From the NCBI RefSeq assembly GCF_988242995.1, contig NZ_OZ547043.1: a stretch of DNA of 64,000 nucleotides; one strand, given 5' to 3'. Position numbers and translations under genes: made by a program. How positions within the stretch are numbered: the first letter of the stretch is position 1; each line of letters starts with the position of its first letter. Positions 58,250-60,913 of the stretch are shown here, piece after piece. The notes under the pieces are model-generated. The model made no database searches, was not told the DNA's origin, and saw only the letters and a list, made by a program, of their open reading frames with translations.

Positions 58250-60913
58250 ATGAAACTGAAAAAACTCCCCGGGTTTAGTTTAGGACTTATTGCTTTGGCG
58301 GTGGGTAATGCATATGCAACACAATTGTTGGATGATTATAGTATACTTTCCTATATAACTGATGAAGAATCGCCGATTGAAATCAAAGATAATAATTCGA
58401 TAAGTAATGGAGAGTATCTAACCACTAAAGACGAAAGCCATGCTGTGAAAGTGGATGACGGTGTAACTGGATATATAAATAATGCCAGTGTGATGACTAG
58501 TGGTGATGGATCTTATGGTATTTCTGTTGATAGTCATAACAAAGTATTATATATAAGCGATAGCGATATTAAGACCTCTGGAAGCGTATCTGACAAAGGA
58601 AATAACCAAGATGTTAATGGAGGGATAACAGCCAGCGCAGTAGTCAGTGAATTTGGTGGCACCATCGTTATGAATGGTGATAATTCAGTCGAGACGAGGG
58701 GGGCATATTCAGCGGGACTTTTAAGTCAGGTTAATGATTCTGGGATTGTGGAAAATAACACCCGTCTTGAAACCACAGATAAAACGAACATTGTTACCTA
58801 TGGGGAAAATGCAGTAGGTGTTCTTGCATGTTCAAGTCCTGGAGAGCCTCGAACATGTGTCGATGCTGTAGATGATGAAGTTAGTGATTCTAACAGTTAC
58901 GAAGTTATTAGCCGTGCTGATTTAAAAATGAATGGTGGTTCCATAACAACTAATGGCACTAATAGCTATGGTGCTTATGCTAATGGGGAAAAAGCATATA
59001 TTAATTTAGATTATGTGGCACTTGAAACCGGGGAGCATGGAAGTTATGCAGTTGCTATTCGACAAGGTAACATTGATATAAAAAATAGTTCTATTACAAC
59101 AAAAGGCACTAAAGCCCCCATTGCAAAAATATACAATGGTGGAGAGTTATTTTTTTCCAATGTCACCGCGGTATCAGAACAAGATAAAGGAATATCAATT
59201 GATGCATCAAATATCGATTCTCAAGCCAAAATAGCACTATCAAGTGTCGAACTTTCAAGTGCTTTGGATAGTATTGATGTTAACAAAACTACAACGGATG
59301 TAAGCATCCTTAATCGAAGTATTATCACGCCTGGTAATAATATTCTGGTTAATAATACTGGAGGTGGCTTAAACATAATTTCGTCCGACTCTACTCTAAA
59401 TGGAGCGACTAAACTCGTTAGCGGCACAACCACACTGAAGCTTTCAGAAAACACAATCTGGAATATGAAAGATGACTCCGTTGTTACCCATCTGACTAAT
59501 TCAGACAGTATTATCAATCTTTCGTATGATGGTGGTCAAACATTTACCCAGGGAAAAACGTTAACCGTAAAAGGTAATTATGTCGGTGATAATGGTCAGC
59601 TTAATATCCGCACCGTATTAGGTGATGATAAATCGGCTACGGACAGACTGATTGTTGAGGGTAATACTTCGGGGTCAACTACCGTCTATGTGAAAAATGC
59701 TGGAGGAAGCGGCGCGGCCACGCTAAATGGGATCGAACTCATAACTGTGAATGGCGATGAATCTCCAGCAGATGCCTTCAGACAAGGTGATGCAAGGATT
59801 GCAGCTGGAGCTTTCGAATATCAACTAAAACAACAAGGCAAAAACTGGTATTTGACAAGTTATCAGTCAGTGAATGAGGAGGATAACAGCTCAGAGGGAA
59901 ATTCAGAATCAACAGAAACGCCTACCCCCGTCCTGCGCCCCGAAGCTGGAAGTTACGTCGCCAACCTGGCAGCCGCTAACACTCTTTTTGTTATGCGTCT
60001 GAACGATCGTGCAGGTGAAACGCGCTACATCGATCCTGTAACTGAACAGGAGCGTTCAAGCCGACTTTGGCTACGTCAAATTGGCGGGCATAATGCCTGG
60101 CGTGACAGCAACGGACAGTTGAGAACGACCTCGCATCGCTACGTCTCGCAGTTAGGGGCGGATCTGTTAACCGGTGGTTTTACCGACAGTGACAGTTGGC
60201 GTTTGGGAGTGTTGGCTGGTTATGCCCGCGACTACAACTCAACTCATTCCAGCGTGTCGGATTATCGTTCGAAAGGGAGTGTCAGAGGCTATAGCGCAGG
60301 GCTGTATGCCACCTGGTTTGCCGATGACATCAGTAAAAAAGGCGCATACATTGACGCCTGGGCGCAATATAGCTGGTTTAAAAACTCGGTGAAAGGGGAT
60401 GAGTTAGCCTATGAATCCTATAGCGCGAAAGGTGCAACCGTCTCGCTGGAAGCGGGTTACGGTTTTGCCCTGAATAAATCCTTTGGTCTGGAAGCGGCGA
60501 AATATACGTGGATCTTCCAGCCACAGGCACAGGCTATCTGGATGGGCGTCGATCATAATGCGCACACGGAAGCCAATGGCTCACGTATTGAGAATGACGC
60601 AAATAACAACATCCAGACCCGACTCGGCTTCCGCACCTTTATTCGTACTCAGGAGAAAAACAGCGGTCCGCACGGTGACGACTTTGAACCTTTTGTTGAA
60701 ATGAACTGGATCCATAACAGTAAAGATTTTGCTGTCTCAATGAACGGTGTGAAAGTTGAACAAGACGGGGCGCGTAATCTGGGGGAAATTAAACTTGGCG
60801 TAAATGGCAATCTGAATCCGGCGGCCAGCGTCTGGGGTAATGTGGGCGTGCAGCTGGGTGATAATGGCTACAATGACACCGCAATGATGGTGGGCCTGAA
60901 ATATAAGTTCTGA
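58250..60913 (+). CDS. ycgH: type Va autotransporter (signal peptide, repetitive passenger, C-terminal beta-barrel), uninterrupted
   Basis: 887 aa; signal peptide MKLKKLPGFSLGLIALAVGNAYA; C-terminal ...MVGLKYKF barrel terminus; position after ymgF. Confidence 0.85.
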   Translation: MKLKKLPGFSLGLIALAVGNAYATQLLDDYSILSYITDEESPIEIKDNNSISNGEYLTTKDESHAVKVDDGVTGYINNASVMTSGDGSYGISVDSHNKVLYISDSDIKTSGSVSDKGNNQDVNGGITASAVVSEFGGTIVMNGDNSVETRGAYSAGLLSQVNDSGIVENNTRLETTDKTNIVTYGENAVGVLACSSPGEPRTCVDAVDDEVSDSNSYEVISRADLKMNGGSITTNGTNSYGAYANGEKAYINLDYVALETGEHGSYAVAIRQGNIDIKNSSITTKGTKAPIAKIYNGGELFFSNVTAVSEQDKGISIDASNIDSQAKIALSSVELSSALDSIDVNKTTTDVSILNRSIITPGNNILVNNTGGGLNIISSDSTLNGATKLVSGTTTLKLSENTIWNMKDDSVVTHLTNSDSIINLSYDGGQTFTQGKTLTVKGNYVGDNGQLNIRTVLGDDKSATDRLIVEGNTSGSTTVYVKNAGGSGAATLNGIELITVNGDESPADAFRQGDARIAAGAFEYQLKQQGKNWYLTSYQSVNEEDNSSEGNSESTETPTPVLRPEAGSYVANLAAANTLFVMRLNDRAGETRYIDPVTEQERSSRLWLRQIGGHNAWRDSNGQLRTTSHRYVSQLGADLLTGGFTDSDSWRLGVLAGYARDYNSTHSSVSDYRSKGSVRGYSAGLYATWFADDISKKGAYIDAWAQYSWFKNSVKGDELAYESYSAKGATVSLEAGYGFALNKSFGLEAAKYTWIFQPQAQAIWMGVDHNAHTEANGSRIENDANNNIQTRLGFRTFIRTQEKNSGPHGDDFEPFVEMNWIHNSKDFAVSMNGVKVEQDGARNLGEIKLGVNGNLNPAASVWGNVGVQLGDNGYNDTAMMVGLKYKF

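Follow-up and report, generated by a model that had tools for sequence, protein, structure and literature searches.

Among the autotransporters of Escherichia coli, the closest described counterparts of YcgH are AIDA-I and a group of chromosomal proteins of the AIDA-I type. AIDA-I (adhesin involved in diffuse adherence), which is grouped with the self-associating autotransporters (SAAT), is characterized by imperfect repeats in its passenger and by a linked heptosyltransferase. YfaL/EhaC, YpjA/EhaD, and YcgV are cryptic in K-12 and likewise carry β-helical passengers; Roux and colleagues reportedly observed in 2005 that these K-12 adhesins are poorly expressed in the laboratory and that forcing their expression produces adhesion and biofilm phenotypes. 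Two of them, YpjA and YcgV, have been linked to biofilm formation (reviewed in PMC9289746). Where ycgH is mentioned in the searchable literature, it is nearly always as a "pseudogene" used for integration, and no functional study of YcgH, under this name or others such as ECIAI39_1904, was found there. The gene is widely used as a neutral landing pad in K-12 engineering; its pseudogene status is lineage-specific.

This article describes the copy of ycgH present in the window, by which we mean the whole 64,000-nucleotide stretch of contig NZ_OZ547043.1 that was analysed. It is highly probable that this copy is an intact allele of a gene polymorphic in E. coli, encoding an AIDA-I-like type Va autotransporter that is likely a surface adhesin and probably silenced by H-NS.

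The Intact Frame and Its Disrupted Counterparts

In the window, ycgH is a single 887-aa open reading frame with an ATG start and a TGA stop (Table 1). Re-translation of the frame reveals no break, as a sequence-only reading of the window had maintained, and RefSeq agrees; in strain A10, where the segment is 100% identical at the DNA level, ycgH is annotated as intact (WP_000768549.1) and the identical protein is named "autotransporter YcgH". The A10 and window flanks are 98.9–99.5% identical, and the IS200C copy of the window is absent from A10; for the part of the window upstream of ~51.1 kb, gene coordinates carried over from A10 were consequently wrong and were dropped. Orthology to K-12 ycgH is indicated by 96.8% nucleotide identity over 3.1 kb of gene and flanks, by the RefSeq name, and by shared synteny, the order ymgF-ycgH-ymgD being that of K-12; the upstream spacer and the signal peptide are near-identical in the two.

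Table 1. Positions of ycgH, its predicted domains, and associated features in the window.
Feature	Position	Strand	Description
ymgF-ycgH spacer	57851..58249	+	AT-rich; presumed promoter and silencing region
ycgH coding sequence	58250..60913	+	Uninterrupted; 887 codons plus stop
Sec signal peptide	58250..58318	+	Codons 1-23; predicted cleavage after AYA
Passenger	58319..59917	+	Codons 24-556; predicted β-helix; AT-rich; variable cassette
15 bp without K-12 counterpart	58601..58615	+	Codons 118-122 (NNQDV), in frame
Autochaperone domain	59477..59827	+	Codons 410-526; C-terminal end of passenger
First K-12 lesion	59783	+	C in window (CAA, Gln512), T in K-12 (TAA stop)
Linker α-helix	59942..59983	+	Codons 565-578; predicted to lie in barrel pore
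Outer-membrane β-barrel	60062..60910	+	Codons 605-887; 12 strands; ends KYKF
Second K-12 lesion	60838	+	T of GGT (Gly863) missing in K-12; 1-bp deletion
Terminator-like hairpin	60930..60956	.	11-bp stem, GC-rich; between convergent ycgH and ymgD

That the K-12 gene is a disrupted pseudogene, as stated in the same reading, is borne out by the annotation of MG1655, in which ycgH is pseudogene b4491 (1219601-1222248) with the PGAP remark "frameshifted; internal stop"; the BL21 gene is annotated in the same terms. Alignment with K-12 locates the two lesions, a stop at codon 512 and a single-base deletion in codon 863, the latter causing a frameshift that takes away the last strands of the barrel. 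Further differences between K-12 and the window are 34 non-synonymous codon changes and 26 synonymous ones, most of them in the passenger, and the 15 bp that encode NNQDV. These residues fall inside a low-confidence loop of the AlphaFold model (residues 116–123) and are also missing from intact 882-aa alleles; the gap is a benign in-frame length polymorphism.

Allele frequencies were obtained by counting 31-mers in 5426 complete E. coli genomes. Codon 512 is TAA in 1500 of these and CAA in 735, while at codon 863 the deleted allele occurs in 1571 and the undeleted one in 1757, a figure that includes other alleles having the same barrel as the window. Since ycgH was intact in nine of 11 sampled genomes with the sense codon, roughly 10% of complete E. 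coli genomes can be expected to have an intact copy. Proteins of 887 aa that are identical or nearly so are encoded on at least 1000 and 721 public contigs (summed up as more than 2000), and intact alleles of 882, 887, and 890 aa come from strains of several continents and hosts. Wild E. coli commonly carry an unbroken ycgH, which has been annotated before; it is neither rare nor new. Single-base indels are generally common in assemblies, and on that account an error of sequencing or annotation might be suspected behind the uninterrupted frame of the window or the lesions of K-12, although nothing specific to this locus pointed that way. The population data refute such an explanation, given that each K-12 lesion recurs in more than a thousand independent complete genomes, that BL21 is annotated alike, and that the intact allele is itself found in hundreds of genomes and thousands of contigs.

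Inactivation has also taken other forms, including IS2 insertions, delA831, a 2-bp insertion, and the large deletions of a class with 64% coverage. ycgH has been knocked out repeatedly and independently across E. coli, and at the population level it is both dispensable and polymorphic.

Domain Organization of YcgH

The N-terminus, MKLKKLPGFSLGLIALAVGNAYA/TQ, displays a basic n-region (MKLKK), a hydrophobic core whose Kyte-Doolittle profile peaks at 2.26, and an A-x-A site, features that were recognized by inspection and correspond to the classical signal peptide proposed from the sequence; it is identical across all examined alleles, those of the ECIAI39_1904 type included. The proposal of a C-terminal barrel ending in KYKF is similarly upheld by profile matches to PF03797 (Pfam Autotransporter; residues 606–865, E = 2.3e-40) and TIGR01414 (E = 1e-109). 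An AlphaFold model of the whole protein (pLDDT 86.2, pTM 0.78) consists of a β-helix, a helix, and 12 long strands, which together span residues 605–886 and lead to a C-terminus, ...GLKYKF, with a terminal aromatic residue. Foldseek matches the modelled barrel to that of the AIDA-I transport unit 4MEE (TM 0.96, rmsd 1.5 Å) and to the barrels of Hbp, EspP, BrkA, and NalP, and the linker helix, assigned by DSSP in the model, also aligns with 4MEE.

The modelled passenger is all-beta at high pLDDT, with strands from residue 35 to residue 536, and is matched by the passengers of pertactin, IcsA, and UpaB in Foldseek. Its C-terminal end is recognized by the autochaperone profiles PF18883 AC_1 (residues 410–526, E = 5.9e-29) and PF03212 Pertactin (E = 5e-9) and is homologous to the IcsA autochaperone 3ML3. 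The passenger had been described beforehand as repetitive, a description that stands for the periodicity of the predicted β-helix but not for the sequence, in which neither tandem repeats (TRF) nor internal matches (self-BLASTP) were detected. Signal peptide, 12-strand barrel, pore helix, and β-helical passenger with autochaperone are thus all present, and together the sequence and the model point to a classical autotransporter (type Va) that belongs to the AIDA-I-like branch and would be exported to the cell surface.

With AIDA-I, YcgH shares the type Va secretion logic and a homologous autochaperone, linker, and barrel (E = 2.3e-76 and 35% identity to 4MEE). It is nevertheless not an AIDA-I orthologue, because it scores only 281 bits against the cut-off of 1200 for NCBIfam NF033176, with only residues 349–887 aligned; it further differs in its passenger, which is free of sequence repeats, and in its surroundings, where the neighbours are ymgF, ymgD, and ymgG and no glycosyltransferase gene was found next to ycgH. 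In the alignment to 4MEE, YcgH D465 lies opposite the Asp, and A484 opposite the Glu, of an acidic pair at the junction. These we take to be D878 and E897 of AIDA-I, its self-cleavage pair, and self-cleavage of YcgH is doubtful because Ala484 occupies the position of Glu897. YfaL/EhaC, YpjA/EhaD, and YcgV resemble YcgH as chromosomal AIDA-I-type autotransporters, and the C-terminal part of a YfaL model matches it, whereas YcgH is shorter than all three, has a distinct passenger, and scores far below their equivalog cut-offs.

Residues 24–409 match no family, ligand-binding, or enzymatic domain in Pfam or NCBIfam. This region could accordingly belong to something other than an adhesin, be it a toxin, a protease, an esterase, or a phage or colicin receptor, and the existence of two deeply divergent passenger cassettes at the locus (see below) could then mirror an arms race against phage or immunity instead of a choice of ligand. 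Such functions are, however, very improbable, in that neither a protease, a lipase, nor any other catalytic domain was found with the same profile libraries, the modelled β-helix runs uninterrupted without a globular insert, and the nearest passengers are of the adhesin type and not SPATE protease domains. An adhesin is the reading retained here.

Selection and the Two Passenger Cassettes

Among intact alleles separated by a dS of ~0.05, dN/dS is 0.03–0.17 for the translocator half (residues 411–887) and 0.6–0.85 for the passenger side (residues 1–410). Purifying selection on the translocator half is thus strong, and the passenger evolves fast. The constraint on the translocator lends substance to the earlier suggestion that the protein is potentially functional. 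It also bears upon the alternative that ycgH, though open, is functionless, a cryptic and never-expressed relic that has yet to acquire a disabling mutation. The recurrent independent inactivations described above, the high dN/dS of the passenger, and the lack of a YcgH phenotype in the literature would all be in keeping with a relic. Yet the low ratio in the translocator half is not expected of a neutrally decaying gene at this dS, the three intact length classes persist across continents and hosts, and a raised passenger dN/dS is also typical of surface-exposed adhesins; we therefore regard a relic as unlikely and a functional autotransporter as the better account. The passenger ratio and the repeated pseudogenization are consistent with selection on the functional part of the molecule being weak or conditional.

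The same chromosomal slot is occupied in other strains by an autotransporter adhesin of the ECIAI39_1904 family, which belongs to the same length class (882 aa), has the identical signal peptide and the same conserved Cys pair, and is essentially identical to YcgH from residue ~558 to the end. Its passenger, including the autochaperone, is another cassette, so that between ~58320 and ~59920 of the window DNA identity falls locally to 35–65%, and protein identity is 62% overall. The junctions are sharp, at codon ~24 and codon ~557, and the fixed module around them (promoter, signal peptide, and linker-barrel) is 97–100% identical between strains. A possible, if tentative, interpretation is that cassettes are exchanged at the ymgF-ymgD slot, where at least two deeply divergent passengers are kept side by side by balancing or frequency-dependent selection (exerted by host ligand, immunity, or phage) and pseudogenization is frequent when cost exceeds benefit.

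Proposed Secretion Route and Function

The steps of secretion proposed here are taken from established autotransporter biology. The 95-kDa precursor would be routed through Sec by its 23-residue signal peptide, and BAM, recognizing KYKF as the aromatic motif at the end of the 12-strand barrel, would insert the barrel in the outer membrane. The passenger would be threaded outward with its C-terminus first, whereupon the autochaperone would nucleate folding of the ~56-kDa acidic β-helix on the cell surface. There, YcgH would most likely act as an adhesin or as an aggregation or biofilm factor, its passenger probably remaining joined to the barrel uncleaved, since one of the two acidic self-cleavage residues of AIDA-I is Ala in YcgH. 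In the K-12/BL21 lineage the gene is dead through the nonsense mutation and the 1-bp deletion; elsewhere it has been inactivated independently by IS2 and other frameshifts, or its passenger has been replaced by one of the ECIAI39_1904 type.

About one in ten complete E. coli genomes would on these predictions encode a complete and structurally plausible YcgH surface protein. The intact allele offers natural starting material for identifying the YcgH ligand and the reason for the frequent loss of the gene, and it is also suited to asking whether H-NS and sigma-S control it jointly with the neighbouring ycgZ-ymgAB-pdeG biofilm island. Its practical value is modest, and it represents no new kind of biology.

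Transcriptional Context

The 5' half of ycgH and the region upstream had been singled out as AT-rich, and measurement confirms this: the 399 bp upstream have a GC content of 34.1%, within the lowest 2.8% of 400-bp windows across the 64 kb, and the first and second halves of the gene have 37.8% and 49.8%, against a mean of 49.1% for the entire window. The spacer aligns with that of K-12 without gaps and with few differences. In K-12 the ymgF-ycgH spacer holds, at spacer resolution, an H-NS site detected by in-vitro genomic SELEX as well as a SELEX site for the RpoD holoenzyme (PMC3946193), and an RpoS-holoenzyme SELEX peak lies at about +136 of ycgH (PMC5493296). A sigma-S ChIP-seq peak labelled ycgH (1219400-1219949; PMC4447067) was rejected as promoter evidence because the coordinates in that paper are those of U00096.2 (an offset of +777, checked with dps), which makes the peak intragenic, at about nucleotides 577–1126 of ycgH.

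The promoter string of Shimada 2014 (TTGACA-19-TATAAG) is absent from the K-12 locus, a generic sigma-70 scan of the spacer returned no convincing promoter, and a scan for high-affinity H-NS motifs gave no enrichment (80 matches, with 71 ± 8 expected). The AT-richness, together with the in-vitro H-NS site of the K-12 spacer, makes it plausible, in line with the suggestion of the sequence-only reading, that ycgH is silenced by H-NS in laboratory culture, and transcription driven from the spacer would then probably be repressed under these conditions as in other cryptic E. coli adhesins. Downstream, the hairpin between ycgH and ymgD is preceded by AAAA on the plus strand and followed by a run of T on the minus strand, on the ymgD side, and from this arrangement it could act as a terminator in both directions.

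Reading Frame and Lesions in K-12

The autotransporter gene ycgH, located between ymgF and ymgD, forms a single + strand frame of 887 codons in the mechanical ORF list, running without a stop from ATG at 58250 to TGA at 60913, as the sequence-only reading had stated. Over the surrounding 3.1 kb (57900-61000), identity to E. coli strain A10 is 100%; this strain originated from wood-wren faeces in Mexico, and in it RefSeq annotates an intact CDS at the same coordinates ("ycgH, autotransporter YcgH", WP_000768549.1). Since the flanks outside this segment share 98.9-99.5% identity with A10, and an IS200C copy adjoining ymgL (~50427-51135; tnpA ORF 50519-51028, + strand) is not found in A10, the window derives from a strain closely related to A10. 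The same IS200C site is occupied in 278 complete genomes.

The window gene is the orthologue of K-12 ycgH, which the earlier reading described as a disrupted pseudogene and which is indeed annotated as a pseudogene in MG1655 (b4491, 1219601-1222248), with the PGAP label "frameshifted; internal stop"; the BL21 gene is labelled likewise. Codon-level alignment, proposed earlier as a means of locating the disrupting lesion, revealed 66 substitutions and two gaps, and identified a nonsense codon at position 512 and a 1-bp deletion at codon 863 (see table). The deletion shifts the frame 25 codons from the end, which costs K-12 the final barrel strands along with the terminal KYKF. The other gap, of 15 bp, is a harmless length polymorphism. 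Residues 116-123, the one loop that the passenger model predicts with low confidence, include it, and the same codons are also missing in intact 882-aa alleles.

Features of ycgH and its product, and allele counts at the two K-12 lesions
Feature	Window position	Residues or codons	Basis or count
All-beta passenger		35-536	AlphaFold model
Autochaperone AC_1		410-526	Pfam, E 5.9e-29
Pertactin-like region			Pfam
Helix		565-578	AlphaFold model
Twelve long barrel strands		605-886	AlphaFold model
Autotransporter beta-domain		606-865	Pfam, E 2.3e-40
In-frame 15-bp gap (NNQDV missing in K-12)	58601-58615	118-122	Alignment to K-12
Nonsense mutation (CAA, Gln, in window; TAA in K-12)	59783	512	Alignment to K-12
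Frameshift (T of GGT, Gly, deleted in K-12)	60838	863	Alignment to K-12
Sense allele (CAA)		512	735 of 5426 genomes
K-12 stop allele (TAA)		512	1500 of 5426 genomes
Undeleted allele		863	1757 of 5426 genomes, including other alleles with the same barrel
K-12 1-bp deletion allele		863	1571 of 5426 genomes

Distribution of Intact Alleles

Alleles were counted by searching 5426 complete genomes with 31-mers centred on each lesion; megablast requires an exact 28-mer, so that only the corresponding allele can match. A sample of 11 sense-codon genomes includes nine in which ycgH is intact (882, 887, or 890 aa) and two in which it is disrupted in other ways, by an IS2 insertion and a 2-bp insertion in strain 504239 and by deletion of A831 in strain 118UI; IS2 also lies within ycgH in two further genomes, H12 and H17. 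Together with the sense-codon count, this sample gives a rough estimate of 10-11% of complete genomes carrying an intact gene. Proteins of 887 aa that are 99-100% identical to that of the window are common in the protein collection, one occurring on no fewer than 1000 contigs and a second on 721, both already named "autotransporter YcgH". The intact state is neither rare nor new, and the finding, correct and well described in the earlier reading, is an ordinary one. Functional studies of YcgH were not found in the literature searched, where metabolic engineering papers, using ycgH as an integration site, account for most mentions of the name.

Domain Organization and Family Placement

By all sequence and structure criteria, YcgH is a classical type Va autotransporter. 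Both the signal peptide, of textbook Sec type in its sequence features, and the C-terminal barrel ending in KYKF had been correctly recognized. The passenger had also been called repetitive; a search for sequence repeats in it found none, and the description holds only for the rungs of the predicted beta-helix. The passenger sequence contains one pair of nearby cysteines, 194 and 203. The AlphaFold model draws on 65 diverse homologues and is a confident one (pLDDT 86.2, pTM 0.78).

By sequence, the AIDA-I transport unit 4MEE is the nearest solved structure (E 2.3e-76), with fragments of the IcsA autochaperone next. 4MEE is also the top Foldseek match (TM 0.96, rmsd 1.5 A), ahead of the barrels of Hbp, EspP, BrkA, and NalP and the passengers of pertactin, IcsA, and UpaB. 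Although the transport units are related, YcgH is not a member of the AIDA-I/SAAT group by the tests applied. NCBIfam finds a generic barrel domain, and its MisL, AIDA-I, YfaL/EhaC, and ShdA models match only the C-terminal part, far under their cut-offs. Opposite the Asp and Glu of the AIDA-I self-cleavage pair, which we take to be D878 and E897, YcgH carries D465 and A484, and on this basis the passenger would, tentatively, stay attached to the barrel.

Selection and Passenger Polymorphism

Among intact alleles (dS ~0.05), dN/dS is 0.03-0.17 for residues 411-887 and 0.6-0.85 for residues 1-410. The secretion machinery is clearly conserved; the exposed part is under relaxed or under diversifying selection. 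The ymgF-ymgD slot of other E. coli strains is occupied by an "ECIAI39_1904 family autotransporter adhesin" (comparison sequence L004, 951-3599), of which degraded forms exist as well. The two types share 97-100% DNA identity until ~58320, where the signal peptide ends, and once more after ~59920 (codon ~557), but only 35-65% in between. A deeply divergent passenger cassette with sharp mosaic junctions is set between near-identical flanks, comprising the promoter region and signal peptide on one side and the linker-barrel on the other. This cassette largely coincides with the AT-rich part of ycgH. The combination of the two-cassette polymorphism with recurrent gene death at this locus is the one mildly interesting addition.

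Base Composition and Regulation

The AT-richness noted upstream and in the 5' half is real: against a window mean of 49.1%, GC content is 34.1% in the 399-bp ymgF-ycgH spacer, and within the gene it rises from 37.8% in the 5' half to 49.8% in the 3' half. The spacer aligns to that of K-12 without gaps and with few differences, and the K-12 spacer contains sites for RpoD holoenzyme and H-NS by genomic SELEX (PMC3946193). The H-NS silencing proposed earlier is plausible on this in-vitro K-12 evidence; a motif scan for H-NS added nothing, and an in-vivo test at ycgH was not found in the literature. An RpoS-holoenzyme SELEX peak lies at ~+136 of ycgH if the coordinates of the paper are those of the older U00096.2 (PMC5493296). 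A sigma-S ChIP-seq peak assigned to "ycgH", stated in U00096.2 coordinates (PMC4447067), converts to window ~58841-59390 (K-12 ycgH nt 577-1126), within the AT-rich gene body, which is suggestive of RNA polymerase bound inside the gene rather than at the ycgH promoter.

Low-GC patches (32-40% per kb) extend over ~49500-62000, taking in ycgX, ymgA-ariR-ymgC, ymgF, the 5' segments of ycgH, and the ymgI/ymgJ area, and several of the low-GC spacers carry an H-NS flag in the SELEX tables for K-12 (ymgC>ycgG, iraM<ycgX, bluR<bluF).

Neighbouring Elements

A GC-rich hairpin with a perfect 11-bp stem (60930-60956) separates the stop codons of the convergent genes ycgH and ymgD; on the ymgD strand it resembles a terminator, and it may work bidirectionally. 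Further downstream, a second autotransporter gene (62258-64000) is open for its first 580 codons and continues past the window end; it is annotated in A10 as "adhesin-like autotransporter YpjA/EhaD" (3369 bp), between ymgJ and minE, a position at which K-12 retains just a 344-bp remnant, the pseudogene ycgI (b4521). Two neighbouring autotransporter genes that are dead in K-12 are thus intact in this strain, the second as far as the 580 codons read.
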